A stretch of 64,000 nt of DNA from a virus (IMGVR_UViG_3300049216_000035:1-64000), one strand, 5' to 3'. Positions 1,369 through 53,846 are shown, numbered from the stretch's first letter. A program made the numbers and translations. Notes: generated by a model not told the origin, from the letters alone.

Positions 1369-1935
1369 CTAGGCTGCGGGATCGTCTTTCGGACGTATCA
1401 AGAGCCTGTTTTGCAGGTCAACGGTTGCGCCCTTGCCACTAGCTGGTCCGCCAATCATAAACACCGCCTGTTTGCGATCCCCTGGCATCGACCCACCACG
1501 TTGACCTGGCCGACCATCGTGTCCATAATTGCCTGATCCTGGGCCACCCTCCGTCATCGACTCACGAACTTCGTAGTCTTCGATGTTGAGGTTCTTGGGA
1601 ATGAATCGCGTTGCACCTAGATTGTGGTGCTGTTCTTCAGGCTCTAGCTCGCCCCCGAGCGCGCGAACTTTGGCGTTCAGATCGTCCTGATCCTTAGCAT
1701 CAATGTTCGTAGCGATATGCATGCCGTTGAAGTCGGCATGTTGCCATACGCGACGATCATCGCCAGCCATGACTGACATGATCTTATCTCGCGTATCAGG
1801 TGAGTAGATAGAATCGTCACCTGGATAGCGCGGTTCAGCATCAGCTTTCATATCCCACGGTGCAACAGGTCCGCTATATTCTTCAGCCCCCGGCGCAGCT
1901 TTATCAGGCCTTATCTCCAGGTGCGCTTCCGCCAC
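1369..1935 (-). pseudogene. remnant of MuF-locus cargo polyprotein: unknown module + linker motif + truncated P-loop NTPase
   Basis: MTE-GGPGSGNYGHDGRPGQRGGS followed by AVFMIGGPASGKG (Walker A) and a stop 19 aa later; the 5' end overlaps an out-of-frame linker copy. Confidence 0.55.
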
Positions 1936-1950
1936 GTTGCCCTGGTCGGC

Positions 1951-2661
1951 CTAAGTGGCTCCGGGTCTGCCTGCGTGACCGTAGTTTCCAGAACTAGCCG
2001 TGCCGACTTCAGTCAGATCGCCAGTCGTGACGTACCAGGTGTTGTTTTTGAGTTTGGGGACGTAGCTATCACCAGTCGCATCAGTGAGTGAATCAGCTAG
2101 AGCGTAAGCAGTAACATCATCTGAGATGCCGTTCTTGCCCATCTCGATAGCATCCGCGATCTGATCGGGGTCTTTGAGTAGATCGCTGGCTGCGTCAATA
2201 TCAGCCGAAGCTAAGGCATCGGAAAGACTTCTTACCCCGGCTGCGGCGTCATTGTTTAGCGCGTCTTCAAGCGTTTGATAGTCGTCAGGGTCAATCTCTT
2301 GCTTGAGGTATTCCATTGAAAGGCCACTATCGCTAAGAAAGCCTTCAACATCTGCCTTCGTCAGATCATAGTTCGTGAGTAGCGAATCTAGTACGTCACC
2401 ATATACGGCTGTTGCATCGCCTAAATCGAACTCACCAAAACCAATCGTTCCACGCCACGCCATAAGTTCGAAATCTTCAGGCGCGTCGTCTTCCATTTGA
2501 ACCATGTGGCGACAACGAGAACCACATTCGAAATCCCCCGGCTGCGGTACTTCTTCGCAGGAGTAAGGGTTATTTTGAACTGCATCGCTACAGCCGTCGC
2601 ATGAATCATCGTCATCTGGCCCGACGAACCAAGCGAGCAAGTCCTCAGCATTAACTATCAT
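1951..2661 (-). CDS. MuF-like head morphogenesis protein, Cys-rich C-terminal half + acidic domain + linker motif
   Basis: W..GP...SCDGC...NNPY....P.PG...C...CRH resembles the MuF Zn-binding region; ends LTE-VGTASSGNYGHAGRPG. Confidence 0.65.
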   Translation of the reverse strand: MIVNAEDLLAWFVGPDDDDSCDGCSDAVQNNPYSCEEVPQPGDFECGSRCRHMVQMEDDAPEDFELMAWRGTIGFGEFDLGDATAVYGDVLDSLLTNYDLTKADVEGFLSDSGLSMEYLKQEIDPDDYQTLEDALNNDAAAGVRSLSDALASADIDAASDLLKDPDQIADAIEMGKNGISDDVTAYALADSLTDATGDSYVPKLKNNTWYVTTGDLTEVGTASSGNYGHAGRPGAT

Positions 2662-5279
2662 GCCGCACGACCTGCACGAGATTCAGATGGACGCAAATGA
2701 TCCTCGCGCGTGAAGTGTTCTTCACCGTTACCTAGATCATAGATCGCAATCTCATCACGCGCTTCGGCTTTATCGAGCGCGGTAGCTTTGTCGTTATGAA
2801 CTTCAGAAACATCGAGGTAGGTCTTGCCGTCGTTAACCCACCCGCCGATATAGTGGTTGGGCTGGCTGAGGATGTCTTTGTTTTCGTTGACGAACTTTTG
2901 CACGTCTTCGGGTTTCGCTTCGCCGTTAATAACGGTCTCGACCTTATCACCCGCCGCGTTACGGATTCCAGCTATAGCGAACCCACTACGCGGTCGAACA
3001 CCCGTCGTGCTGATCGTAATGCCGCCATCGCGCACAATGCTGCGAGCGATGATGTTCGGGACAATACTCGACCCACCACCAGCCGAACCACCACGCTGCC
3101 CAGGTCTACCGTCGTGACCGTAATTACCACTGCCTACTCCACCTTCGCGGTACTTTCTATGATTCTGCACTTCAGGGAAATAGCTATGGCGCATCTCATC
3201 AGCTATCTCAACCGGAAATGCGAAGGACTTCTGTTCCGGGAACGAGCGTTGCGAGACGGGCTTACCCTCGTTCTCAGGACTATGATTCACCCAAGCGTTC
3301 TGGGCTAGAGTTTCTGCCGCAAGTGCAGGCAGTGCATCCTTCGAGTACATGCGGCCGTGTGCTTGATAGGCTTTGAACTCGCCACGCTCGCCGAACGTAT
3401 TGTCGGGGAAGAAGTGGCCGTACATATCGTGAACGCCACGAAAGATCGTGTTCGCGGTTTGACCGTCTTCAACGACTTTTGAGAGCGGACTATCGTCAGG
3501 CAAGTCGTCTTTCGAGGATCGCACGAACAGCGTCTTCGTCTGTTGGACTGAACGACGCATATCGGGCTGATCTTTATATGGCTCACCTTTGTCTTCAAAG
3601 TCGAACTTATAGCCCGCCGCTTTGAGGTCGTGATACTGATCTAGCGTTTCTTTTATGAACGCCGCGTAGGCTTTCTGCGTTGCGGGATTCGTGGGGTCGT
3701 GTTTCGCGTCAGCGTATATCTGCGCGATCTTACGCAGCTTGTCGTTCAGATCACCAGTGCTACCAGAACCACCACGTTGACCTGGACGGTCAACATGATC
3801 CCAGTTCCCAGAGCCGCGACCGCCTTCACGCACCTTAATTCGCGGCTTGACTGTCTTGTACGTTACAGCTTCGTCAACGATCTTCTTCGATCCGAAGTCC
3901 ATATTGGAATGAAGAACCATGACGCGAGTATCACGATCAGCTTCCGCCATCGGTGCAGCCTTGAACGTGAACTCCCAATTATGAATGGAGCGGGATTCAG
4001 TGTACGGATTGTATGTTTCGCCGAGGTCTTCTTTGCTTGCGAGAATCCAATCATGCGTATTACCGCGTAGTACGGTTTCATGTTCGTCTTGCAGGTGTAG
4101 GATGCCGTTTCTGGGTTCCGTTAAATACGAGTCAAAGACATCGCTGCTGCGAACACCTTCAAAGTGTATAAGTGACCGACTGAACGACTTCGCTATATCT
4201 TCATCATCAGTTGCAGAGAGAAGCGGTCGGAATTGAACGCGGTCGCCCACAATGGCTTTTGCTAACGCCGCAGCTTCTACGTTGCCAATACCGCGAACAA
4301 GGCCAAGTGCATCATCCCCCATGCGCGTGAACTTCTCAAAGGCTTTGGCTTCCTTATCAGCCTGCTCGGCACACCACTGTTTGACTTGATCTTCGCTTCC
4401 GCCTAACGCTCGAATGTTGCGAAGTTCTGCATCGTACTGTGTTTGCAAGTCTTCCTTGCTACGATACGGCGTAACGAGATTGTCGAACCGATCTTTGCCA
4501 GCCGCCTCGTTCATCACCATTTGCATGAAGTGCGCTGTAGAGTCACGCGACGAGCCAATCCAGTGACCCATCAAATACGACTTGATTTCATCGCTCGTTA
4601 GCGTCTTAGCAGTCGAACCCTCACCGCTGGGCGCTGATCCGCCGACTTGACCAGGACGCCCGGCCTGATCGTGGTTGCCTGAGTTCTCGTTGCCGACTTC
4701 GACCATCGACTCTTTGACTTTATCCTGACGATCACGAGCTTTCACTGCCGTCTGAAAGTCAATCATCGCCTGGATGTAGGCGCGTTCGGCCGCTTTCCAC
4801 AAGAAGTGTCCGTACAGCTTGATACGCGCGATCCGCGCCTTGTCGGACATCCCAGCTTGCAGGTCTGGCTGCAGCGACGTGGTGAGATACTTCTCGTTTT
4901 CGGTCAGTATAGATTGGATGACAGACTGAGGGGCATTAGCGGGAGTGACGGGAGTATAAAACCCCAACCACCCGTTGGTTTTCAGATCGCTAAGACCGCG
5001 CTGATAGCCAGCCGCCACAGCTTGCGGAACGTAGAGTTGCGCCAAGTCCTTGAGTTGCGCGATGCGAGCAACGGGCTTCTTATCAGCACGAGCCGCTTTC
5101 TCAAGATCGCTCTGGTAGCGGCCAATCATCGCCTCAATCGTGAAGATGTGCTTCGAGTGGACGCGCTTCAAGACTGCGGATAGGTTCTTGGTAGTCTCCG
5201 CTCGGAGAGTTTCCGCCTTTTCAGCCGCCTCGATTAAGCGCGAAGCCTCCTCTAGCTTACTCGTCTCCGAGGAGTTCAT
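2658..5279 (-). CDS. MuF-like minor head polyprotein: N-terminal helical half + three cargo modules (ADP-ribosyltransferase-like, HDxxGH domain, unknown domain)
   Basis: Immediately downstream of the portal; three copies of the SGN.xH.xRPGQ.GGS linker; ART motifs LVRG, LSAT, DEHE. Confidence 0.7.
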   Translation of the reverse strand: MNSSETSKLEEASRLIEAAEKAETLRAETTKNLSAVLKRVHSKHIFTIEAMIGRYQSDLEKAARADKKPVARIAQLKDLAQLYVPQAVAAGYQRGLSDLKTNGWLGFYTPVTPANAPQSVIQSILTENEKYLTTSLQPDLQAGMSDKARIARIKLYGHFLWKAAERAYIQAMIDFQTAVKARDRQDKVKESMVEVGNENSGNHDQAGRPGQVGGSAPSGEGSTAKTLTSDEIKSYLMGHWIGSSRDSTAHFMQMVMNEAAGKDRFDNLVTPYRSKEDLQTQYDAELRNIRALGGSEDQVKQWCAEQADKEAKAFEKFTRMGDDALGLVRGIGNVEAAALAKAIVGDRVQFRPLLSATDDEDIAKSFSRSLIHFEGVRSSDVFDSYLTEPRNGILHLQDEHETVLRGNTHDWILASKEDLGETYNPYTESRSIHNWEFTFKAAPMAEADRDTRVMVLHSNMDFGSKKIVDEAVTYKTVKPRIKVREGGRGSGNWDHVDRPGQRGGSGSTGDLNDKLRKIAQIYADAKHDPTNPATQKAYAAFIKETLDQYHDLKAAGYKFDFEDKGEPYKDQPDMRRSVQQTKTLFVRSSKDDLPDDSPLSKVVEDGQTANTIFRGVHDMYGHFFPDNTFGERGEFKAYQAHGRMYSKDALPALAAETLAQNAWVNHSPENEGKPVSQRSFPEQKSFAFPVEIADEMRHSYFPEVQNHRKYREGGVGSGNYGHDGRPGQRGGSAGGGSSIVPNIIARSIVRDGGITISTTGVRPRSGFAIAGIRNAAGDKVETVINGEAKPEDVQKFVNENKDILSQPNHYIGGWVNDGKTYLDVSEVHNDKATALDKAEARDEIAIYDLGNGEEHFTREDHLRPSESRAGRAA

Positions 5280-8200
5280 TGGCGGATTCCACGTTTTCGG
5301 TGATCGACGTAGCGAGTTTCTGAATTGTGTCCATAGCGGGGAGCATGGCTTCCTTGAGGAGATTCATGCGAATAGCACGTTGCAACGACTGCTTACTACG
5401 CATGATCGATGCTTTGCCTTCGTTCGCCATTGGGTTCTTTGCAGCCGAACTGTAGCCACTGGACGGAGCGGTTGGATCGGTATGGATCGGGTCCATCCCC
5501 GCCGCTTTGTTCGTTTTCGTGCTGCCACTGTTCGGCGCTTTACCGGGCGCTGCACTTGGGTTGGATTGTCCACCCGTTCCAGGTGCGCCGCCCTTGGCTT
5601 GTTCTGGCATGAGTTTGTCGCCAGCCACAGCCGGAGGAGTCGGCACGTTGACCATCTGGTTCTGAGGAGCAATCGGCTGCTTCGCGGCCATCTCGGCCTG
5701 CACGTCTTGCGCAATACTCGTCTGAGGAACATGCTCGTTGTCTTGAGTGTAGACGTGAGCGATGGACATCCCGAGTTGCGACTCTTCGAGGATCGTCTGC
5801 CACGAGTCTTCGAAGCTGTACGTCGTGATGTTGAGTTCCTTGGCTGCAATCTTCGCGGCCATAGACTTCGGCATCCACTGCATAGCTTCAGCGAGCGCGA
5901 GGTCTTTCAGCTTCGCACTGCGATCTTCTTGGGCAATAGACGGGAAGATGAACTCTAAGAACTCTTTGGCATAGTTCTGAGACTGTTTGAGAAGTTTTAT
6001 CCGCTTCTTCTGGTCGTCGTTAAGCGGTTTATCGTCGTCGTTGTTTCCGTTGACCGTCTTGTTGAGGTTCTGGTTTGGCTTCTGCTGCGGGTTGTTTGGA
6101 TCGGGGGCTGCTTCGTTGTCCTGATCCTGCGGCTGATTGCCAGCACGAAGCATAGCTTCGCGTAGCTCGAACCCATACTTTGCGGCGACTTCTTCGGGAG
6201 TCATACCCTTCTTGAAGTCGTGGATCGCGGCAGAGAACGGGCTTAGGTCGTGCTTGCCGACCCCGACGCCGTACTTGCCTTTGGAATCGCGAAGCTGATC
6301 GGGATGACCCTCGATCAGTTCAGACTCGGTAAGAGACTCACGCTGCTTGCCAGGCGGAGGTGCCTGTTGCGGGCCATTCTGACCCTGCTGAGGTGGTTGT
6401 TGCCCAGGTTGCGGCTGTTGGCCCGGCTGACCGGGTTGCGGCTGTCCTGGGCCAGCGTTTGGCCCTCCCGGACCCATCGGTGGCGCACCACCAACACCGT
6501 TGAGGCCGAGATTGATATTCGTCTTCGCGCCCGGCTTGTTCAATGCCGTCATGGCCTGCTTGTGCTGCATGCCAAGAGACTGCTTGTCCATCTCGTGACG
6601 GTGCTGCTGATCTTGGACAGACATCGAAAGCGTGGTGTCGTGCAGTTCTTGGGCGTTCTGCTGCTGTTGCTTCTGCTGATCCTGAGCGGCTTGATTCGCC
6701 TGATCCTGTTGGGCCTGTAAATCAGCTTGCAGCGCATCACGATCCGGCAGATCGGTATTGCTCTTAGCCAGCTTCGTTACCGAACGCGCATCAGGAAGGA
6801 TGTCGTTCAGTTTGAGGCGACCACCCTTGATTGCATTGTTAATGACGCGATTCGCCACTGCTTGGCAGAACGATTCAATAAGGCGCTGACGCCGCTCGAA
6901 CCGCTTTACGCCCGGTTCAGTAGCAGTGAGCGCACCGGACTTACCACCCTTACCACTATCTCCGATGAACTCTTTGGGTACGCCAAAACCGACCGCAATA
7001 AGATTGACCAAGGCCGAAATGTCGGACGTAGATTCGTTAGCCTTAATTTCAGAACCAACGGGCTTGAGTTCGAGATTCTTGTTGTGGACGAACGTCGATC
7101 CGGGTTTGTACGGATCGGGAAGGTTTAACTGGACACGCGAGATGTCTTCATTACCGCTGTTGACCGATACGTCCCACACGAACGCTGCTTCGAGTTGGCC
7201 TTTGACCACGCGCGCGTTCATAAGGTCTTGGAGGCGCTTCAACCACCCAAGAATCGAAAACAGGTCACTGCGACCGCGCTTCTCGTACTTCGAGACATTC
7301 AGTTTGATATGCAGGACGTTGTTCGCCGGAATATCCCGCAGAACGTAGCGCATCGAAGGGATGTTGCCCTTCGTATACATTTGATACGCAGTAGAATACT
7401 GCTGACGCATGTAGAAGACTTTTTGGATGTCTTCAGGATCGGTGATAATGTCCCAGATTGTGGACGGATCGATCATCCGATAGTCGGTGTAGCCTTTACC
7501 CAGCTTCGGAACGCTATCGATGAACTCAAGCATGAGTTCACCCGCCCACCACGCATCAGTCGCGATGTTCTCAAGGTCGGTGTAGAAGTCCGTGCGATCC
7601 ACGAACTCGCGCCAGACTTCATCGACTTCTTCGTTCGTAGACGTATGGTCGATACCGCGTCCGAGAACGAACGAGGTTTGTAGTTCGCAGAGTTGGTGCG
7701 CCACTGGGTTGTGGTTGTAAGCCTGAAATGCCTTACGGTGCATGTCAAGCATGTCGTACTGATACAACTGCTTAGACTCTGGTCCGCACATCATGGGGAT
7801 GTACTCTGCGTTAGGATCGCGACCGGAGCCATACGGCGGCATCGCCGTGCCTTGATATGCACTACCACCGCCGAAGTCGTCAGCGTATCCACCGCCGTCG
7901 AAGCCTTCGAGCAAACGATTAGCGGCGGCTTCGATTGCTTCTTCGCGAACGCTATCAGCTTCGCGAAGCGTTACGCCGTAGACATCGGGCGCTTTGTTCG
8001 ACTCGACAAGTTCTTGCCAGCGCGCTTGACCTTCACGCAGCCGCTTCTGAAGTTCCTCACGCGAATTGTACTTCTGAAGACGATACGTCCCGTCAGTACC
8101 AACTTCGAACAGCGTTGCTTGGATTTCCCAGTCAACCTCTTCACCGTTCGGCCCAATCTGTTTGTCAGAAAAGAAGTCGAACTTTCCGACAGTCGGTTCA

Positions 8201-8394
8201 AGAGCTTCCATGAACTCTTTGTCGGGCTGGTAGGGTTCGATAGGGGCTTTGGTCTGGAAAGACTGGGCGAACGTCGCAACTCTCGCTACGGCGCTCTCAG
8301 AGACTTTCTGTGGACTACCACTCTGGTCAACGACAAGAGCCACAGCACTCGACTGTGGCGCGGGGGGTCGTTTTCTAGCTCTAGTCCGTCCCAT
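5257..8394 (-). CDS. portal protein with long N-terminal extension and internal Q/P/G-rich insertion
   Basis: Follows terL; portal-like core (AYNHNPVAHQLCELQTSFVLGRG, IDPSTIWDIITDPED, NVSKYEKRGRSDL, IAVGFGVPKEFIGD). Confidence 0.85.
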   Translation of the reverse strand: MGRTRARKRPPAPQSSAVALVVDQSGSPQKVSESAVARVATFAQSFQTKAPIEPYQPDKEFMEALEPTVGKFDFFSDKQIGPNGEEVDWEIQATLFEVGTDGTYRLQKYNSREELQKRLREGQARWQELVESNKAPDVYGVTLREADSVREEAIEAAANRLLEGFDGGGYADDFGGGSAYQGTAMPPYGSGRDPNAEYIPMMCGPESKQLYQYDMLDMHRKAFQAYNHNPVAHQLCELQTSFVLGRGIDHTSTNEEVDEVWREFVDRTDFYTDLENIATDAWWAGELMLEFIDSVPKLGKGYTDYRMIDPSTIWDIITDPEDIQKVFYMRQQYSTAYQMYTKGNIPSMRYVLRDIPANNVLHIKLNVSKYEKRGRSDLFSILGWLKRLQDLMNARVVKGQLEAAFVWDVSVNSGNEDISRVQLNLPDPYKPGSTFVHNKNLELKPVGSEIKANESTSDISALVNLIAVGFGVPKEFIGDSGKGGKSGALTATEPGVKRFERRQRLIESFCQAVANRVINNAIKGGRLKLNDILPDARSVTKLAKSNTDLPDRDALQADLQAQQDQANQAAQDQQKQQQQNAQELHDTTLSMSVQDQQHRHEMDKQSLGMQHKQAMTALNKPGAKTNINLGLNGVGGAPPMGPGGPNAGPGQPQPGQPGQQPQPGQQPPQQGQNGPQQAPPPGKQRESLTESELIEGHPDQLRDSKGKYGVGVGKHDLSPFSAAIHDFKKGMTPEEVAAKYGFELREAMLRAGNQPQDQDNEAAPDPNNPQQKPNQNLNKTVNGNNDDDKPLNDDQKKRIKLLKQSQNYAKEFLEFIFPSIAQEDRSAKLKDLALAEAMQWMPKSMAAKIAAKELNITTYSFEDSWQTILEESQLGMSIAHVYTQDNEHVPQTSIAQDVQAEMAAKQPIAPQNQMVNVPTPPAVAGDKLMPEQAKGGAPGTGGQSNPSAAPGKAPNSGSTKTNKAAGMDPIHTDPTAPSSGYSSAAKNPMANEGKASIMRSKQSLQRAIRMNLLKEAMLPAMDTIQKLATSITENVESANELLGDE

Positions 8395-8402
8395 CTGTCT
8401 AA

Positions 8403-10022
8403 TTATACGCGATCAAAGCGACGGTAGTTAGCAACCCGAGTCTGGAAACTAGAGCCAATCGTTATGGCTTTGGGGCCACCGCCCTTGAACTGGGACATCG
8501 CGATGGCACTGTAGCTGTTGGCATGAGCATAGTGGTCCGCCCCCAGCTTCTTCCAAATCGCCTTCTGAAGTCCAGTATCTTCGTCCGTGTCGATGACCTT
8601 CGCCATCGCGACAACCTGCTCGATAAACTCTTTGCGGGTGTCGTCTGGCATGCGCGGCAGGATCAGATCGCGGCGCGTAATCTCTTCGTACATGGCATCG
8701 AGCGATTCCGTTCGATTGACGTTAACCGCCCAGTCCTTGAACTCGTCCTGAGTGTTCTCACCCGGCCGAATCCACTTGTACGAGCCCTTCTGTGTGTCAA
8801 CATAGTAGCACAAGTAGACACGGCCACCGAACCGCTTCGCAAAGTCACGGGCTGAGTGCTGATTCGGCAGGCCGTCGATCACGCATATATTCACATCATA
8901 TTCGCGCATGTAGCGATCTAGCTCGAAGAACGTCGCCACCTTGCCGACAAACAGAACGCGCGGTCGGCCAGTGATCTTATCGTTCTGGCGGATGACGATG
9001 TGCAATTCTGATCCACGTTGGTCAACGCCCATGTAGCTGCGCTCGCCCTGGATCATCGCCATGTCTGTGCCTTGATCCATGCACGATTCAACCATGTCTG
9101 CCGTGACGCGCATGTCGCTCGAAATCCACGGAATACCGAGGTCCGAACGCATGAACTCTTCACGACCGCGACCGCTCTCGTACTTGTAGAGCATTTCCGA
9201 TAGATCGGCGACGCCGCCATACAGCCCGCAAAGGTGATAGCCGCGAACGCGCTCAGTCTTCTTTTCTGGTTTCCAGAAGCCGTAGCATTTGTCGAGTTCG
9301 CTATCGCACTTGCGACATACGAGGATCGCCTTCGTCTCGCTGATACGCTTGATAATGTCGGGGAATTGAAACTCGCAGATGTTGTGCGTCTCGCACTTCT
9401 TGCACACGAGATTCCAATAGCGTTTATCCGACAGACCGAACTCGTAGTCGATCCCATAACCATCGAACGTCGGCGTCGATAGCATATACTTCCACTTCAG
9501 ACTGGAGTGGAGCAGCCGCTTCTCGGCGAGTTCTTTCTGATCGGGTGTGACTTCATCGAGTTCGTCAAAGACGAGCATGTCGCCAGGAACAGACTTCAAG
9601 CGAATGTTCGAACGCATGCCTCGGAAATACAAAAAGCCGCGCCCAATCTGACGCAAGCCTACGGAGTCAACATCCTTCGAACCCACGAGTCCTGAAATGT
9701 AGGGACTGTCTTTGATGATCGGCGCAACGCGAGACTTACTAAATTCTCTCACGTCCTCATCGGTCGGGAAATAGTACAAAACATTTTTCCCTAATTTATC
9801 ACAGACGTATAAGGACTTAATCATCCCCAATACCGAAGCACCCATTTGTGCCGATTTTTCAACCACTTGGTATGGGTGAATGTCAGCGTACATATCAATC
9901 AAATAGGCGTGGTCTTCGAAAGAGAACGGCTTGCCGTCCACCTTCACATATTCCTGGGCATACCCGATAAGTGAGGAGTCTGCAATCGCTTGAGCAATCG
10001 CCAGTTCTTCTTTGCTTGCCAT
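8403..10022 (-). CDS. terL: terminase large subunit (lambda gpA-like)
   Basis: VVEKSAQMGAS (gpA-type Walker A), LVFDELDE Walker B, LSTPT, CxxC pairs, nuclease MGVDQ and DHYAHA; ATG at 10022 coupled to the upstream stop. Confidence 0.92.
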   Translation of the reverse strand: MASKEELAIAQAIADSSLIGYAQEYVKVDGKPFSFEDHAYLIDMYADIHPYQVVEKSAQMGASVLGMIKSLYVCDKLGKNVLYYFPTDEDVREFSKSRVAPIIKDSPYISGLVGSKDVDSVGLRQIGRGFLYFRGMRSNIRLKSVPGDMLVFDELDEVTPDQKELAEKRLLHSSLKWKYMLSTPTFDGYGIDYEFGLSDKRYWNLVCKKCETHNICEFQFPDIIKRISETKAILVCRKCDSELDKCYGFWKPEKKTERVRGYHLCGLYGGVADLSEMLYKYESGRGREEFMRSDLGIPWISSDMRVTADMVESCMDQGTDMAMIQGERSYMGVDQRGSELHIVIRQNDKITGRPRVLFVGKVATFFELDRYMREYDVNICVIDGLPNQHSARDFAKRFGGRVYLCYYVDTQKGSYKWIRPGENTQDEFKDWAVNVNRTESLDAMYEEITRRDLILPRMPDDTRKEFIEQVVAMAKVIDTDEDTGLQKAIWKKLGADHYAHANSYSAIAMSQFKGGGPKAITIGSSFQTRVANYRRFDRV

Positions 10023-10432
10023 TAAGCTGCCACCGATTTTCGCGTTGCGAGATAATAGAACGCAGCCGCAACTATAGCGCGACGATCCTTGAACATACCC
10101 AGTCCCGCGTTGCAGTTGAAACATAGCATGCCACGAACCTGACCTGTCTCGTGATCGTGGTCAACGAGTAGCTTCTGGCCTTCTTCGGGAACCATCGCAC
10201 AGATGTTGCACTTTGAATGATCGAGTGAGAGGTATTGTTCGCGCGTTAAGCCGTACTTGCGCTTGACGTGTCCCCAAAAGTCAAGTTCTTTCTTACAAAG
10301 CCCGCAAGTGTTCCAGGTATATCGACCAAAAAGTGCTTCGTCCACATACGCTTCACAACGCGAACACCACCGCAAGCCATCGTGCGGTGGTTTACGTTCT
10401 GATATAGGTGGACGACCTATCTTAGTCGCCAC
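10022..10432 (-). CDS. endonuclease VII-family homing endonuclease
   Basis: CNIC...LLVDHDHETGQVRGMLCFNCNAGLG; lies between terS and terL. Confidence 0.9.
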   Translation of the reverse strand: MATKIGRPPISERKPPHDGLRWCSRCEAYVDEALFGRYTWNTCGLCKKELDFWGHVKRKYGLTREQYLSLDHSKCNICAMVPEEGQKLLVDHDHETGQVRGMLCFNCNAGLGMFKDRRAIVAAAFYYLATRKSVAA

Positions 10433-49554: not shown

Positions 49555-49770
49555 TTAGCTCGGAGTCGTGACCGTAGCCGCGATAGCGACGAAGACCTTC
49601 TGATTCTGAGAAACAAGGTTGCCGCTAATGATAATCGCGTTGCCAGCAGCCGCAGCCGAGTTCATCGCCGTGGCGTCGGTCTGCGCCGCGCTCAGGGTCG
49701 AATACTCAGCTACCAGGTCTTCGCCGAACTGGGTCCGATACTGGATGAAACCACCCGATGCGGTAGCCAT
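49555..49770 (-). CDS. small putative virion protein
   Basis: 71 aa, A/T/S-rich, downstream of MCP. Confidence 0.55.
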   Translation of the reverse strand: MATASGGFIQYRTQFGEDLVAEYSTLSAAQTDATAMNSAAAAGNAIIISGNLVSQNQKVFVAIAATVTTPS

Positions 49771-50426
49771 TACGCTGCTTTCCTTACTGCCCAGCGCGTC
49801 AGTTGTGCGTCGCGCATCTTCTGACGAGTCTCTGGGCTGTGTTTCTTGCCTCGCAACGCGACGCTATTGGCGGCACCAATCTTCGCGCGATGTTCGGGCG
49901 TGAGTTTCGCACCCTTTCGCCCCTTCACCGCAGCCGCGACCATGATCGCCTTCTGCTCGGGGGTGTACTGGTACGGATTAGCCAGCTTCGATGCCCTGAT
50001 CTTCTCTTTTTTCTCTGTTGAACAAGGAATGCGTCGCTTATCGCCAGCCTTCTTTTGTGCCGCTGCGGAGTTGACTTTACGCCGTGCTATCGTCTCCGGG
50101 GAGAGATGGAACAACGGCGAATCAGCCGACTTAGTAGCATTGTATACTGGCTCTAATTTGTTAATCCAGTATTGTTCAAGGGCTACACGCTTTTCCGGCT
50201 CGCACAGTTCGATCACAAAGAAGTCGAACTGATCTTCACCATACTTTGCCCACGCGGCCCGCAGATGCGGGGTAACGTGCCCACCTGTTCTGAGTCGGTG
50301 CAAGTGCTGACGCCACCGGGAGTGGATGTCGATACTCGACCCTATGTACATGTTGCTGTTAATCTTGTTCTGGATTCCGTAGACTCCAGATAGTCTTTTT
50401 GACGCCATATACCTAGTATAACTCAT
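49770..50426 (-). CDS. GIY-YIG homing endonuclease with NUMOD3 repeats
   Basis: SGVYGIQN...MYIGSS...RW..H; GKKHSPETRQKM. Confidence 0.92.
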   Translation of the reverse strand: MSYTRYMASKRLSGVYGIQNKINSNMYIGSSIDIHSRWRQHLHRLRTGGHVTPHLRAAWAKYGEDQFDFFVIELCEPEKRVALEQYWINKLEPVYNATKSADSPLFHLSPETIARRKVNSAAAQKKAGDKRRIPCSTEKKEKIRASKLANPYQYTPEQKAIMVAAAVKGRKGAKLTPEHRAKIGAANSVALRGKKHSPETRQKMRDAQLTRWAVRKAA

Positions 50427-50429
50427 ACT

Positions 50430-50471
50430 AGAGTGTGACAGTTACCCTACATAAGCAGAGTGTGACAGTTA
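50430..50471. repeat. 15-bp direct repeat AGAGTGTGACAGTTA x2
   Basis: 50430-50444 and 50457-50471, between the MCP stop and the GIY-YIG gene. Confidence 0.8.
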
Positions 50472-51617
50472 TATGCCATTTCCGGCGTATAGGTAACGGT
50501 ACTCGATGACCGCCGTCGCGTAGCGACGACGAACACGGTAGCGATACTCGTCCTTTTCGAAGGACGCGCCAGCGTTGCGGGCTTCCTGGAGCAGTTCGAG
50601 CGGATCGCGATCCTGCCACACGATGGACGTTTTCGGTTCCATCAGGTACCAGTAACCGTTGCCCGAGCCGTCAACAGGCAGCCATCGGCTGATCTTCAGC
50701 GTGTAGAGGCCCTGAAGGGGATTGATCGTCCCAGACCAACCCGTCGCGCCACCGCTGAAGAAGGCCGTCTGCGTCGCGCCCGTACCATTGGTCGTGGTAT
50801 TCGGAACGCTCGGTTGCAGCGTCGAGTTCAACAGCTTCGCAGCGTTGAACTTTTCAGCCGGAGCCGTGAGCAGAACGCCCGGCTTGACCATGATCTTGTT
50901 CCCGAGGGGATCGACCATGTTCATCAGAGCGATGTCGGCAGCTTCGAGGCCAGCCTGCGAGAGCTTCGCATACGAGGTCGGACGGTTGCCGATGGCAGTC
51001 GTGTACGACGTGTTCGCGACGCCCGTGATACCACGACCCTGGGTCGTGATCTTGAAGACATCGACGCCCATAACGTCCGCTTCTTCTTTGTAGCGGAGGC
51101 GCTGGCCGAGGCCCGTCGCGCGCTGTTCGATCTGGCCCGTCTGATCGTCATCAATCAGTTCGCGCTCGACCGTGAACATGCGACCGACCTTCTTGTTGAC
51201 GACTTCCACGTCAAGGCCGGACACACGCGAGTCCTCGAACTTGCCGCCGAGCGGCACGTCACGCGGAATCTCGACGCCGAACATCGGGGCGTACCATTCT
51301 TGGCGATTGCTCGACGGACGCGCCGACACGAGGTCGGTATACACGAAGTCGTCAACGCTCTTGTACGCATCGAACATGAAGTGCTGGACGCCGTAGCGCA
51401 GGAGTTGGCCGAAGGCCGTCTCCGACGTGGCTTCCGAGAGCTTCGCTTCAGCTTCCTGAAGGTTCTTGTTGAGACGGCCGAAGCTAAAGTTGTCGGACTC
51501 TAAGAGTTCCTCATACTTCTTCGGATCGACTTTCGCCGAGCGGCGGATCGATTCACCGAGGCGCGTTTGCTGCGCTTCGAGTGCGATTGCCTGACGCTCG
51601 ATCAGAGACTTTCTCAT
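50469..51617 (-). CDS. major capsid protein (HK97 fold, Mu gpT-like)
   Basis: KVGRMFTVERELIDDD.TG, GNKIMVKP..LL, YRVRRRY; probable cleaved prodomain ending KLSE|ATS. Confidence 0.9.
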   Translation of the reverse strand: MRKSLIERQAIALEAQQTRLGESIRRSAKVDPKKYEELLESDNFSFGRLNKNLQEAEAKLSEATSETAFGQLLRYGVQHFMFDAYKSVDDFVYTDLVSARPSSNRQEWYAPMFGVEIPRDVPLGGKFEDSRVSGLDVEVVNKKVGRMFTVERELIDDDQTGQIEQRATGLGQRLRYKEEADVMGVDVFKITTQGRGITGVANTSYTTAIGNRPTSYAKLSQAGLEAADIALMNMVDPLGNKIMVKPGVLLTAPAEKFNAAKLLNSTLQPSVPNTTTNGTGATQTAFFSGGATGWSGTINPLQGLYTLKISRWLPVDGSGNGYWYLMEPKTSIVWQDRDPLELLQEARNAGASFEKDEYRYRVRRRYATAVIEYRYLYAGNGI

Positions 51618-52148: not shown

Positions 52149-53819
52149 TTAGACTCCCATTCCCGCGAAGATGATCGATTCGTTGGCACGAGCATCGCTC
52201 TCGCGAATCTGGACCTGGCGACCGGGGTTGCCGACGATCTTCTTCGTGCCGATTTCGGCAACGTAGTTGACCTCAGTCTCGATCAGAGAGTCCATCTCCT
52301 CAGCCGTCTTGCCAACAAGCGACGGGAGAAGTTTGGTGGCCGCAGCCGCCGGGAGATTGCTCTCCTTCAGCTTGTTCTTGGCCGTCTCGATAGACTCGCG
52401 CATCTCATTTTTGGTGCGCTCTGCCTTGAGTTCTTTCTTGAGGCGCGCTACTTCGGCCGCAGCTTCCGCGCGAGCTTCCGTGAGCGCCGCTTGGAAAGCC
52501 GAACTATTGCGCGAGCGAACATCGCTCTCTTTAGTTTTAGATTCCGAAGTCTGCTCGGACTCATCGTCCTCGTCATCATCGTCATCTTGCGGGGCTTGTT
52601 CGCCCTTCGCAACGAACGGCGGGGCTTTCTTCCCACCGAAATTGGCCGTGCCAGCTTCCTTAGCTTTCGCCTCGGACATGCTCTCGGAACACTCGTCGCA
52701 CTTGCAGTCGTCCTTGTGCGCTTCTTTCATGTCCGTGCCGCTGGTGAGAGCTTCAACGAGCGTTGCGAGGTCTTCCGGGTCAACCGAACCCTCTTTGCTC
52801 TGAGCCTTCAGCCGCTTGGCAGTCTCCACGAGTTTCTTGTCCATCGTAGCTCCCTTATCGCTTTCGACTAGTGCGAGGAATCTGCCGCCCCGCGCGGGTT
52901 TCGTGACCAGATCGGCGCTGAAGGCGTCCGTAATCGAGTTCACATAGTTGACGGACATGCCGCCCACATCTTTAGGTGACACGTCGCCGTCTGCATTGAT
53001 GCTGATACCAGCGTAGACTTTGTTTGGAAATTGCTTCGAATACGCAATCGCCTCTTTGATGAGGCCAACCGCCCAGTCTTGTCCGTCCTGAATCTTGAGC
53101 TTGGCAGCGATAGCCGTCTTGCCGTTGTTCTGGACGATGTGCGAATCGAAGTAGTAACCGAACAGATCGCGCACCGAGCGTTCGGGACGATCAGTCTCTT
53201 CGAACGCGCTCGGATGATCCGCATACGCTTGCGCGCCATCGAACACTTTGTTGGCGACCGCTTTGATGAGCGTGTCTGCCGCGTAATAGTGCTTGTCGCG
53301 CTTGTTGCCCAGACCTTCCTCAATGATAATCACGCTCGCGGTGCGAGTCGCATCATCGTAGGTGCCTTCGATCAGACGAGGATTGAAGACCAGCGTTTCA
53401 CGGAGGTTCTGAACCGACTCTGTTATCGCCGACTCTTTACTCTTCGTGCCGAGCATCTTGTGCGCTCGTACTTTGATCTTCTTCTTATCTTCTGCCGAGA
53501 GGTTCTTGCCTCGCGATAGCATCTGGAGCGCCAGCCGTGCATGCTTCTTGTCCGGCATCGGGAACCGACCACCGGGAAGAGTCTCAGTACGCTGACGTAC
53601 CTTTTTGCCTACCGCCTCTTCGATGCTGTTGTCGGTCGGATGAGTCGTCTCAGGAGAGATCGTATCCGTCCGGCGAGTCTTGGCATCGAAGGGTCCGGGC
53701 ACTTTTTCAGTTTTCAAAGGCAGATAGGCCCTCGACTTACCAAGTCGGGGCTGTGCACCGTCCCGGAAGAGTTGTCCGGCCGCAGTTCCAGACTGCGCCT
53801 GACGCGAGGCGACCATCAT
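52149..53819 (-). CDS. prohead protease-scaffold with N-terminal DUF6582-like domain (start uncertain)
   Basis: IIEEGLGN..HYY, YADHP, RSVRD, GISIN, SADLVTKPARGG; C-terminal coiled coil; RFPMPDKKHARLAL. Confidence 0.8.
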   Translation of the reverse strand: MMVASRQAQSGTAAGQLFRDGAQPRLGKSRAYLPLKTEKVPGPFDAKTRRTDTISPETTHPTDNSIEEAVGKKVRQRTETLPGGRFPMPDKKHARLALQMLSRGKNLSAEDKKKIKVRAHKMLGTKSKESAITESVQNLRETLVFNPRLIEGTYDDATRTASVIIIEEGLGNKRDKHYYAADTLIKAVANKVFDGAQAYADHPSAFEETDRPERSVRDLFGYYFDSHIVQNNGKTAIAAKLKIQDGQDWAVGLIKEAIAYSKQFPNKVYAGISINADGDVSPKDVGGMSVNYVNSITDAFSADLVTKPARGGRFLALVESDKGATMDKKLVETAKRLKAQSKEGSVDPEDLATLVEALTSGTDMKEAHKDDCKCDECSESMSEAKAKEAGTANFGGKKAPPFVAKGEQAPQDDDDDEDDESEQTSESKTKESDVRSRNSSAFQAALTEARAEAAAEVARLKKELKAERTKNEMRESIETAKNKLKESNLPAAAATKLLPSLVGKTAEEMDSLIETEVNYVAEIGTKKIVGNPGRQVQIRESDARANESIIFAGMGV

Positions 53820-53846
53820 TCTCACCCTTATCCGCCACGAAGTCAC

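Follow-up and report, generated by a model that had tools for sequence, protein, structure and literature searches.

Why does a phage repeat one glycine-rich peptide five times in the genes behind its portal, each time after the same kind of tripeptide? Injection of proteins along with phage DNA is known, but how such cargo is chosen, processed and delivered is unclear outside T4 and a few giant phages. The locus examined here belongs to a phage from a moss metagenome, represented by a 64,000-nt stretch of DNA, hereafter the window. Five in-frame copies of the peptide, which we call the tag, lie on the minus strand in three consecutive ORFs after the genes for the terminase large subunit (8403..10124, minus strand) and the portal protein (5257..8394, minus strand). 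We conclude that the three ORFs are probably the remnants of a cargo polyprotein carried in the head, belonging to the 'polyvalent proteins' of phages, with each module placed behind a cut site for the phage's own protease and a header tag. Taken as a whole, this is the best explanation, and we hold it with reasonable rather than firm confidence.

Five tags in three ORFs

In the window, the consensus is a hydrophobic residue, any residue and Glu, followed by GGxGSGN[YW]xHxGRPGQ[RV]GGS. With a slash for the proposed cut, the minus-strand copies read MVE/VGNENSGNHDQAGRPGQVGGS (a diverged copy; cut site 4698-4706, tag 4635-4697), VRE/GGRGSGNWDHVDRPGQRGGS (3825-3833, 3765-3824), YRE/GGVGSGNYGHDGRPGQRGGS (3144-3152, 3084-3143), LTE/VGTASSGNYGHAGRPG (2008-2016, 1960-2007; ended early by TAG at 1951-1953) and MTE/GGPGSGNYGHDGRPGQRGGS (1549-1557, 1489-1548). 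A first-pass annotation had placed five copies in these post-portal ORFs, each behind hydrophobic-x-Glu, and both observations hold: the coordinates agree, and a degenerate DNA pattern for the tag core matches the window at these five copies only, where shuffled sequences lead one to expect 0.03 matches. No additional copy was found in the 74.5-kb contig. DNA identity among the copies is only 39–62%, so the conservation is at the protein level. Site 3, tag 3 and the linker that follows are predicted to be disordered (model residues 197-248, pLDDT <40).

Sites and tags 1 to 3 separate the four modules of the first ORF (873 aa; 2658..5279, minus strand), which overlaps the portal stop by 23 nt. 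Module A (aa 1-191; 4707..5279, minus strand) is a helical N-terminal domain without an assigned family, kept at the N-terminus of the relatives P0002, P0003 and P0006; it gave no MuF similarity and no atlas match, and may serve as an anchor by which the chain reaches the inside of the prohead. Module B (aa 216-482; 3834..4634, minus strand) is probably an R-S-E type ADP-ribosyltransferase (ART), judging from its structure neighbors in the atlas, which are ART clusters (TM 0.42–0.55), from feature matches (0.89–0.91) that include ART clusters, and from motifs read by eye (VRG ... SAT ... DEHE); there was no Pfam match. In P0002, an 80%-identical relative, a HEMGH zincin module fills the same slot. 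Module C (aa 506-709; 3153..3764, minus strand; phrog_3170) is well folded (pLDDT >90), has no assigned family, and carries the invariant signature N..FR.VHD..GH...GE..A...H...ET..Q..W.N. It is probably an enzyme and possibly a zincin-like HDxxxH variant, a weak lead; its best structural match, also weak, is ArdC (Z 3.5). Module D (aa 733-873; 2661..3083, minus strand; phrog_17808) is a small alpha/beta domain without an assigned family. Modules C and D co-occur in other phages and form one untagged protein in Bxz1-like mycobacteriophages.

The second ORF (236 aa; 1951..2661, minus strand) has a Cys-rich N-terminus (CDGC...PQPGDFECGSRCRH), an acidic region, site LTE and tag 4. The third (188 aa; 1369..1935, minus strand) begins with a module without an assigned family (aa 1-126) that is homologous to part of P0006, followed by site MTE, tag 5 and a 39-aa remnant of a Zeta-toxin-like kinase that retains the Walker A motif, GGPASGKG; the Zeta_toxin match (E 0.16) covers only positions 13-38 of the 199 in the profile. 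A full Zeta-toxin or AAA_33 kinase domain was considered for this ORF and rejected, the Walker A stretch alone being left; in the relatives P0005 and P0018 the whole Zeta kinase domain stands behind the same tag. The idea that four different, unrelated domains follow the tags was therefore overstated: copy 5 leads into a P-loop remnant, copy 4 runs to a stop, and C and D are a conserved pair. The four modules of the 873-aa ORF are separately conserved.

Out of frame, 20 nt past the GRPG of copy 4, lies the remnant of a sixth tag (1925..1959, minus strand), which reads HLGRPGQRGGS at 1925-1957. Tag 4 ends after GRPG at a deletion joint (1959/1960), and both ends of the deletion fall inside tags. 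In related strains the sixth tag is intact (E/GGPGSGNHGHLGRPGQRGGS) and heads the next module. The deletion scar and the kinase remnant mark this as a decaying cargo locus, part of which may no longer be made.

The locus had also been described as MuF-anchored. That description is not supported for the window: Phage_Mu_F (PF04233) was not detected at E<=10 in module A, the 236-aa ORF or the 188-aa ORF, and hhalign comparison with the MuF domains of tagged phages returned probabilities of 3% and 0.1%. A CxxC...C..CRH pattern recalls MuF by eye only. MuF-toxin fusions of temperate phages, reportedly described by Jamet and colleagues in 2017, are said to join a portal-adjacent head protein to a variable toxin domain. 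They differ in having one toxin per MuF fusion, whereas the window ORFs have no MuF match, and we know of no report of the tag in them.

The tag across phages

A profile of the tag matched 6,664 protein cluster representatives at E<=1e-3, 173 of them at E<=1e-30, and a single protein can contain as many as 10 copies. Its DNA pattern was found in more than 113 stretches in IMG/VR, versus 43 in 185,579 species genomes, mostly on contigs of metagenome-assembled genomes (MAGs); the MAG contigs with the tag are binned to bacteria and archaea. Such a scan had been suggested as a check in the first-pass annotation. The tag is nearly restricted to viral contigs and sits in head-gene neighborhoods, with a phage-specific residue before it and variable domains after it. 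It heads capsid-associated proteins of thousands of uncultured phages; no cultured phage or virion proteome with it was found, and no published paper or catalogue describing it.

In its general form the tag is a near-invariant run of 20 residues, GGxGSGN[FWY]GHxGRPGxxGGS, followed by a Gly/Ser linker. Among 143 ORFs, the first tag lies within 60 aa of the start in 55%, and every tag lies at least 89 aa from the C-terminal end. Leaders of 10–60 aa before the tag are conserved among the paralogues of one phage. Pfam domains in tagged proteins are always positioned between tags, and most modules behind a tag have no known family. Gly codon identity is 0.35 among copies within one phage, where codon usage predicts 0.29, and copies from different phages reach 0.27; the copies of one phage thus have no synonymous similarity, and selection acts on the protein.

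Among 73 upstream neighbors of tagged ORFs, MuF (13), terminase (about 15) and portal (8) domains occur, and MuF is the commonest upstream neighbor of tagged genes elsewhere. Fourteen of 73 tagged ORFs contain a portal domain themselves; ART, NUDIX, Zeta toxin, GNAT and 2H phosphoesterase domains are also present.

The residue before the tag follows the head protease

Of all columns, the residue immediately before the tag contrasts most strongly between comparisons within one phage (identity 0.76) and comparisons of different phages (0.19), and in 138 further multi-tag proteins the majority residue is carried by 89% of tags. Across about 90 viral records, this residue tracks the protease family encoded in the same record. 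Records with Peptidase_S78, the HK97 type, have Lys at 24 and Arg at 1 of 25 sites (9 records). Strong matches to DUF2213, whose ORFs match 'head maturation protease' PHROGs, go with Asp at 44 of 44 sites (25 records). The sole Peptidase_S77 record has L-x-E at 4/4 sites, and with proteases of the T4 gp21 fold the residue is Glu. In the relatives P0002 to P0006 every listed tag follows Glu, with a nearly always hydrophobic P3, as do all five in the window; within the window clade and two further phages with the window's protease, all tags stand behind [LVMYF]-x-E. Because the protease families are few and related phages share both traits, the association reflects a small number of independent events, perhaps 4–6.

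The archetypes HK97, T4 and SPN3US agree with this pairing. T4 gp21 cuts after (L/I)-x-E. Cleavage falls at K103/S104 in HK97 (PMC10275583) and after A-x-E in SPN3US (PMC10052503).

The proposed cutter in the window is a candidate head-maturation protease (52149..53846, minus strand) with a T4 gp21 fold at about aa 148-315 and a scaffold-like helical tail in which hydrophobic-[RK]-E-S sites are conserved. In searches with its AF2 model (core pLDDT >90), the sole PDB match at E<=0.001 was T4 gp21 (5JBL chains A-C; best E 1e-6, prob 1.00, TM by target 0.53). Across 41 homologues, residues H211 and S282 do not vary. Pfam Peptidase_S77 had no match at E<=1 in the whole contig, and fold together with a weak profile alignment suggests the link to gp21. 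Only 2 of 40 records of this protease family have tags, so the protease does not need the tag; in those two further phages, [LVM]-x-E precedes 8/8 tags. These observations fit a window protease that would cut after the Glu of hydrophobic-x-Glu. About 45 kb separate the genes for the protease and the major capsid protein (50469..51617, minus strand) from the portal-cargo locus, and a gene is interrupted at the contig end, which makes the layout unusual.

The first-pass annotation had proposed that the phage protease cuts the polyprotein into tag-headed effectors. Since the residue tracks the protease family, the window protease folds like gp21 and tags in phages with related proteases follow [LVM]-x-E, this proposal is well supported, by comparison.

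Could the entire 20-residue element instead be a mere extended recognition or docking site for head proteases of the assemblin fold, with no role after the cut? We think this unlikely. Cut site and tag do always adjoin, one fold is common to all the protease families involved, and the small residues that begin the tag (GGPGS) would be well placed just past a cleaved bond, on its prime side. The tag, however, is invariant although the specificity of the P1 pocket varies, and it is absent in most phages with the window's protease family. None of the 73 tagged ORFs showed a capsid-protein family, and an alternative tag type, QPRDxHGR[WF], can replace the tag at a given junction with the L-R-E site before it unchanged. 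To our knowledge, the known substrates of HK97 gp4 and T4 gp21 are also without the tag.

It is improbable that the chains stay uncut, with tags as inter-domain linkers binding a common partner such as DNA and the phage-specific residue otherwise caused. That account explains neither why the preceding residue matches the protease family nor why a phage's own P1 residue is depleted across the 45 aa after the tag. Behind the tag, a second fixed cut site was not found. Half of the tagged ORFs, moreover, have the mere 10–60-aa leader noted above, like the capsid-targeting leaders of T4. Uncut chains would agree with modules C and D being a single uncut protein in Bxz1-like mycobacteriophages, and with the full-length transfer of some polyvalent-type proteins (PMC5512222).

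For polyvalent proteins, processing by zincin modules has been proposed (Iyer et al., 2017, PMC5512222), and a zincin-like metallopeptidase module within the polyprotein might replace the prohead protease as cutter. The relatives P0002, P0005 and P0006 have HExxH modules, and module C combines an HDxxGH...E...H signature with a weak likeness to the ArdC metallopeptidase. We nonetheless regard this as highly improbable: the family of the prohead protease is mirrored in the residue before the tag, and the P1 preferences known for HK97 (K) and T4 (E) are among the matches; a metallopeptidase Pfam family was matched by 1 of 73 tagged ORFs; and the window has a probable ART where its closest relative has the HEMGH module, yet the sites are the same. 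Asn-dependent self-cleavage occurs in some capsid proteins and inteins, and the invariant Asn-aromatic-Gly-His recalls it by resemblance only, but we give almost no credence to a tag that cleaves itself without need of a protease, for example if its invariant Asn cyclised with help from the invariant His, as this leaves unexplained a phage-specific residue six positions upstream that tracks the protease family.

A model for loading and delivery

From the anatomy, protein-level conservation, head-gene context, covariation of site and protease, and protease fold, we infer the following course of packaging, cleavage and ejection for the cargo polyprotein. The chain would enter the prohead via its N-terminal module, and the prohead protease would cut after each Glu. 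Each module would thereby be freed inside the head with a tag at its new N-terminus, and the modules, an ADP-ribosyltransferase-like enzyme and others, would exit with the DNA at infection.

For the role of the tag, our leading guess, a tentative one, is that it associates with the DNA packed into the head or with the channel through which it exits, a partner that every tailed phage has. More speculatively, the tag may be a universal 'ride-along' signal of tailed phages, exposed at the N-terminus by the protease and tying any protein domain to the packaged DNA or exit channel, for retention in the head and then delivery to the host cell along with the genome. AT-hooks offer a lead for tag function, not membership: the invariant G-R-P-G lies in a disordered glycine-rich peptide and contains the GRP core of that DNA minor-groove motif, whereas the tag is without the AT-hook's flanking basic residues. 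AT_hook was not among the Pfam families listed for tagged proteins at E<=10, a search in which HMMER filters drop weak short matches. The invariant 20-mer far exceeds any known prohead-protease footprint.

Relation to known head cargo

Polyvalent proteins carry 2–15 effector domains per polypeptide (ART, Zeta kinase, NUDIX, GNAT, metallopeptidase). Their genes adjoin those for portal or MuF, or are fused with them, and the proteins are predicted to be carried by the head and processed (Iyer, Burroughs, Anand, de Souza and Aravind, 2017, PMC5512222). The window resembles them in having at least two unrelated effector-type domains per polypeptide, with four modules in the 873-aa ORF and B swapped in P0002, and in its head-morphogenesis neighborhood, the ORFs following directly after terminase and portal. 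It differs in having a defined site and a 20-residue tag, whereas the sections of that paper considered here hold no conserved tag or inter-domain cut site, and in that the site follows the prohead-protease family, whereas zincins are the processing enzymes proposed there.

In T4, IPI-III and Alt, an ADP-ribosyltransferase, are head-internal injected proteins whose short N-terminal leader gp21 strips off after hydrophobic-x-Glu (PMC5694885). The likeness extends to the gp21 fold of the window protease and to the conserved leaders of many tagged proteins elsewhere. A short T4-type capsid-targeting leader (10–20 aa) was considered for the window itself and rejected; the first site follows a 191-aa module. 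T4 cargo, in contrast, consists of single proteins with nothing conserved at the new N-terminus, whereas here modules are strung together, each with an invariant tag shared across differing proteases, portals and hosts. Giant phages come close in another respect: a gp21-related protease cuts many proteins that lie inside the head and are ejected, in each case after x-E and in some at more than one site, and the ejection proteins phiKZ gp175 and SPN3US gp245 are cut after A/S/G-x-E. These are propeptides, not polyproteins of unrelated enzymes, and the sections considered here report no shared post-cut tag (PMC10052503, PMC5694885).

Implications

With its cut site matched to the head protease of each phage, the tag offers a way to learn the P1 preference of a prohead protease from nothing but the genome sequence: K/R in the case of S78, E with S77, and D with the uncharacterised DUF2213 proteases. 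The deletion scar, with both ends in tags, illustrates how modules are gained and lost in cargo arrays. Tag and site together provide a sequence rule for finding head cargo such as anti-defence enzymes and toxins in metagenomes, and the tag is a testable handle on the retention of proteins in capsids and their expulsion, with use in loading phage particles. If it is a ride-along signal, QPRDxHGR[WF] would be another form of this device, and foreign proteins could be loaded into phage heads and injected by means of a portable, programmable address made up of cut site and tag.

Tag copies and gene order in the window

The first-pass annotation had reported five copies of a Gly-rich element of about 21 residues (GGxGSGN[FWY]GHxGRPG, hereafter the tag), and all five were found where it had placed them, each behind hydrophobic-x-Glu: MVE (tag 1, 4635-4700), VRE (tag 2, 3765-3827), YRE (tag 3, 3084-3146), LTE (tag 4, 1954-2010) and MTE (tag 5, 1489-1551). 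They lie at the end of a minus-strand series that runs from the terminase large subunit (8403-10124) through the portal (5257-8394) to ORFs of 873 aa (2658-5279), 236 aa (1951-2661) and 188 aa (1369-1935). Searched with a degenerate DNA pattern of the tag core, the window gives exactly five matches, all at tags 1-5 (shuffles predict 0.03), and the 74.5-kb contig holds no further copies. Before tags 1 (4692-4712) and 5 (1546-1566) the site is doubled, [KR]-E-S-M-[VT]-E, placing two Glu sites four residues apart.

The window copies share only 39-62% DNA identity and use Gly codons at random, so the conserved thing is the peptide. Gly codon identity is 0.35 between copies in one phage, 0.27 between phages and 0.29 as expected from codon usage. 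The randomised synonymous sites exclude both gene conversion and recent duplication as the source of the repeats; they also rule out the tag DNA as a homologous recombination site, while illegitimate tag-to-tag joins do occur.

The surrounding layout is atypical. Integrase and early genes come first, followed by protease and capsid and by the tail genes, and the contig end is occupied by terminase, portal and cargo. An ORF is cut by the first bases of the contig (window 1-250; the other end comprises contig 64000-74541), so the contig ends are not true genome ends. At 1045 aa the portal ORF is exceptionally long; it includes a low-complexity region rich in Q and P as well as a long C-terminal extension. 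A GIY-YIG homing endonuclease gene (49770-50426) directly follows the major capsid gene.

The residue before the tag follows the head protease

Across phages, the residue before the first Gly (P1) is K in 31%, D in 26%, L in 13% and E in 6% of 193 instances. Its identity is 0.76 within a phage vs 0.19 between phages, the largest contrast among all columns, followed by that of P3, two residues further upstream (0.33 vs 0.10). In 138 further multi-tag proteins, the majority P1 residue of the protein is found at 89% of tags.

We compared P1 with the head-protease family encoded in the same viral record. The nine records with Peptidase_S78 (HK97 type) have K at 24 and R at one of 25 sites, and the single Peptidase_S78_2 record has K at both of its sites. 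Records with a strong DUF2213 match (25) have D at 44 of 44 sites; the 30 sites of 13 records with a weak DUF2213-like match are mostly [RK]-x-[LA], with a few H. One record encodes Peptidase_S77 (T4 gp21 type), and its four sites all read L-x-E. For the DUF2213 ORFs, the matching PHROGs (E 1e-55) carry the annotation head maturation protease.

T4 gp21 cleaves after (L/I)-x-E. HK97 gp4, an S78 enzyme, cuts the capsid protein at K103/S104 (PMC10275583); gp21 removes leaders from internal proteins, Alt, gp23 and gp24 (PMC5694885), and an SPN3US enzyme related to gp21 cuts after A-x-E (PMC10052503). The pairing of P1 with protease family agrees with both archetypes of known specificity, HK97 gp4 and T4 gp21, and the independent pairings are few because related phages have both traits in common. 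The correspondence between P1 residues and known protease specificities is nevertheless hard to account for in another way.

A candidate protease with a gp21 fold

The window encodes a candidate head-maturation protease (52149-53846, minus strand) that falls in a phrog annotated 'head maturation protease' and has no Pfam match. A structure model based on 41 homologues is confident in its core; T4 gp21 is the model's sole PDB match at E<=0.001 (5JBL, E 1e-6, probability 1.00), and His211 and Ser282 are invariant across the family. The helical, scaffold-like tail of the protein contains conserved hydrophobic-[RK]-E-S sites at aa 324-329, 480-485, 491-496 and 545-550, which are likely self-processing sites; one tail site, LALVE|S, stands directly behind the protease domain. 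A complex prediction of protease aa 140-330 with a peptide spanning the site and tag 3 scored 0.05 and gave no usable answer.

Glu precedes all tags in the window and all tags listed in the related proteins P0002-P0006, and P3 is nearly always hydrophobic. As a check, 40 other viral records that encode this protease family were examined; tags occur in just two of them, and each of the eight tags there stands behind [LVM]-x-E. The first-pass proposal that the head protease cleaves after hydrophobic-x-Glu is thus upheld as far as sequence comparison allows, by the Glu sites, the gp21-fold protease and these eight further tags.

The tag as a header of the module behind it

In 143 tagged ORFs, the first tag lies <=60 residues from the start in 55%, successive tags are spaced 127-878 residues apart, and a tag is never <89 residues from the C-terminus. 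Recognised domains are always between tags, at a distance of 20-70 residues behind one. In an AlphaFold model of modules C and D, the last two of the four domains (A-D) of the 873-aa ORF that tags 1, 2 and 3 separate, both domains fold; pLDDT is <40 over the site, the tag and the linker. From these placement rules and the low pLDDT, the tag is predicted to be a disordered header of the module behind it. A search for a further fixed cut site behind the tag found none, and over the 45 residues after the tag the P1 residue typical of a given phage is depleted; both results fit retention of the tag.

Within one phage, paralogous cargo genes have in common an N-terminal leader of 10-40 aa before the cut site (viral records L074, L082, L089, L096 and L107), for example MTITLLVRVK|GG and ..EVLTxLFE|GG. 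These leaders look much like the capsid-targeting leaders of T4.

Modules behind the tags

A Pfam search of the 873-, 236- and 188-aa ORFs returned no matches. Module A has no atlas neighbour, and neither it nor the 236-aa ORF has significant likeness to MuF. Judging by its atlas neighbours, module B resembles an R-S-E ADP-ribosyltransferase; in the 80%-identical relative P0002, the same slot between the same tags holds a HEMGH zincin module instead. Module C (3153-3764) is well folded in the model and rich in invariant polar residues (HDxxGH...E...H). Foldseek gave no PDB fold match for modules C and D, with VIA-align Z<=3.5 at best; in structure, module C weakly resembles YbeY, minigluzincins and the ArdC metallopeptidase (Z 2.7-3.5), and it may belong to the HEXXXH zincin variants that Iyer et al. 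(PMC5512222) mention. Of a Zeta-like kinase, only the Walker-A stretch is left behind tag 5 (1369-1488).

Module D travels with module C. In some 200 Bxz1-like mycobacteriophages the two form one tagless 433-aa protein away from obvious head genes, such as gp107 of Mycobacterium phage Ava3 (L162 2518-3819). In the related proteins P0004 and P0249, a comparable Glu site at the C-D junction is followed by another tag, QPRDxHGR[WF]. This second header type, NP(D)QPRDxHGR[WF] followed by glycines, occurs in P0004, P0005 and P0249; preceded by the same L-R-E / K-E sites, it takes the place of the GGxGSGN tag at the C-D junction and looks like its functional equivalent. It is rare in loci of the first type (one match).

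Spread of the tag among viruses

The 193 distinct instances give the consensus GGPGSGN[FWY]GHxGRPG[EKQ][VRI]GGS, and then a Gly/Ser run. Although the search pattern did not include them, GGPGS and the last S are conserved at 94-99%, P (57%) excepted. Of 1.84 billion cluster representatives scored with a 32-column profile built from the tag (A1), 6,664 proteins passed E<=1e-3; 1,003 of them reached E<=1e-10 and 173 reached E<=1e-30. Proteins linked to the query by the tag alone contain ART, GNAT, NUDIX, Zeta-toxin, 2H-phosphoesterase, glutamine-deamidase, protease or portal domains. The back-translated tag pattern found >113 stretches in IMG/VR, with up to nine copies per locus among the matches listed, and only 43 in 185,579 prokaryote species (one genome each), mostly on MAG contigs and some binned to archaea. 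Among 73 tagged ORFs, 14 have a portal domain, four MuF and several a head-protease domain; their 73 untagged upstream neighbours include 13 MuF, about 15 terminase and eight portal genes. The tag is part of a head-morphogenesis module.

The tag profile has no match among PDB chains, no Pfam model covers the tag, and neither tag strings nor QPRD strings were found in the searchable literature; a term search of the polyvalent-protein paper (PMC5512222) returned no mention of the tag. A tblastn search of cultured phages with a 37-aa tag peptide gave no matches and is uninformative on absence, since the low-complexity filter probably masks the tag. The tag is absent from the regions read of Bordetella IFTN9 and Hafnia yong1, cultured phages with DUF2213 proteases, and of mycobacteriophage Ava3, and no laboratory model phage carrying it was found among the cultured phages examined.

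A deletion scar in a decaying cargo locus

A second moss-metagenome run, X3, reproduces the window letters around 1894-2044; among the sequencing runs listed for the sequence, none was an RNA run. Contigs of strains 95-99% similar, from two other moss-metagenome runs, X5 and X7, diverge exactly at 1959|1960. In these strains the 236-aa ORF continues past the joint (...GRPGQ[IV]GGSAGGTD), and an intact E|GGPGSGNHGHLGRPGQRGGS heads the 188-aa module, a reading that requires a 1-nt difference at 1907, present in both runs; both tags around the joint are intact, with other sequence between them. Because the X5/X7 strains hold intact tags and extra sequence at 1959|1960, the window phage must have lost at least one module, by a deletion with both ends inside tags that was joined 20 nt out of register. 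This joint accounts for the stop at 1951-1953 and for an out-of-frame sixth copy. The cargo locus is decaying, and the tags are its break points.

Contigs of related strains also diverge at 1401/1422, behind tag 5, and may therefore contain the full kinase. At 1799, within the module of the 188-aa ORF, contigs of the X5 and X7 strains break off from either side, which suggests an insertion or rearrangement.

Proposed mechanism

Phages with different proteases, portals and hosts all carry the same invariant tag, and its partner should therefore be common to all of them. DNA is a tentative first guess for this partner, prompted by the invariant GRPG, His and aromatic residue. In the mechanism that we propose, the polyprotein chain would enter the prohead via its N-terminal part and the gp21-like protease would cleave behind each Glu; the freed modules would remain in the head, each with the tag at its new N-terminus, and would exit with the DNA at infection.
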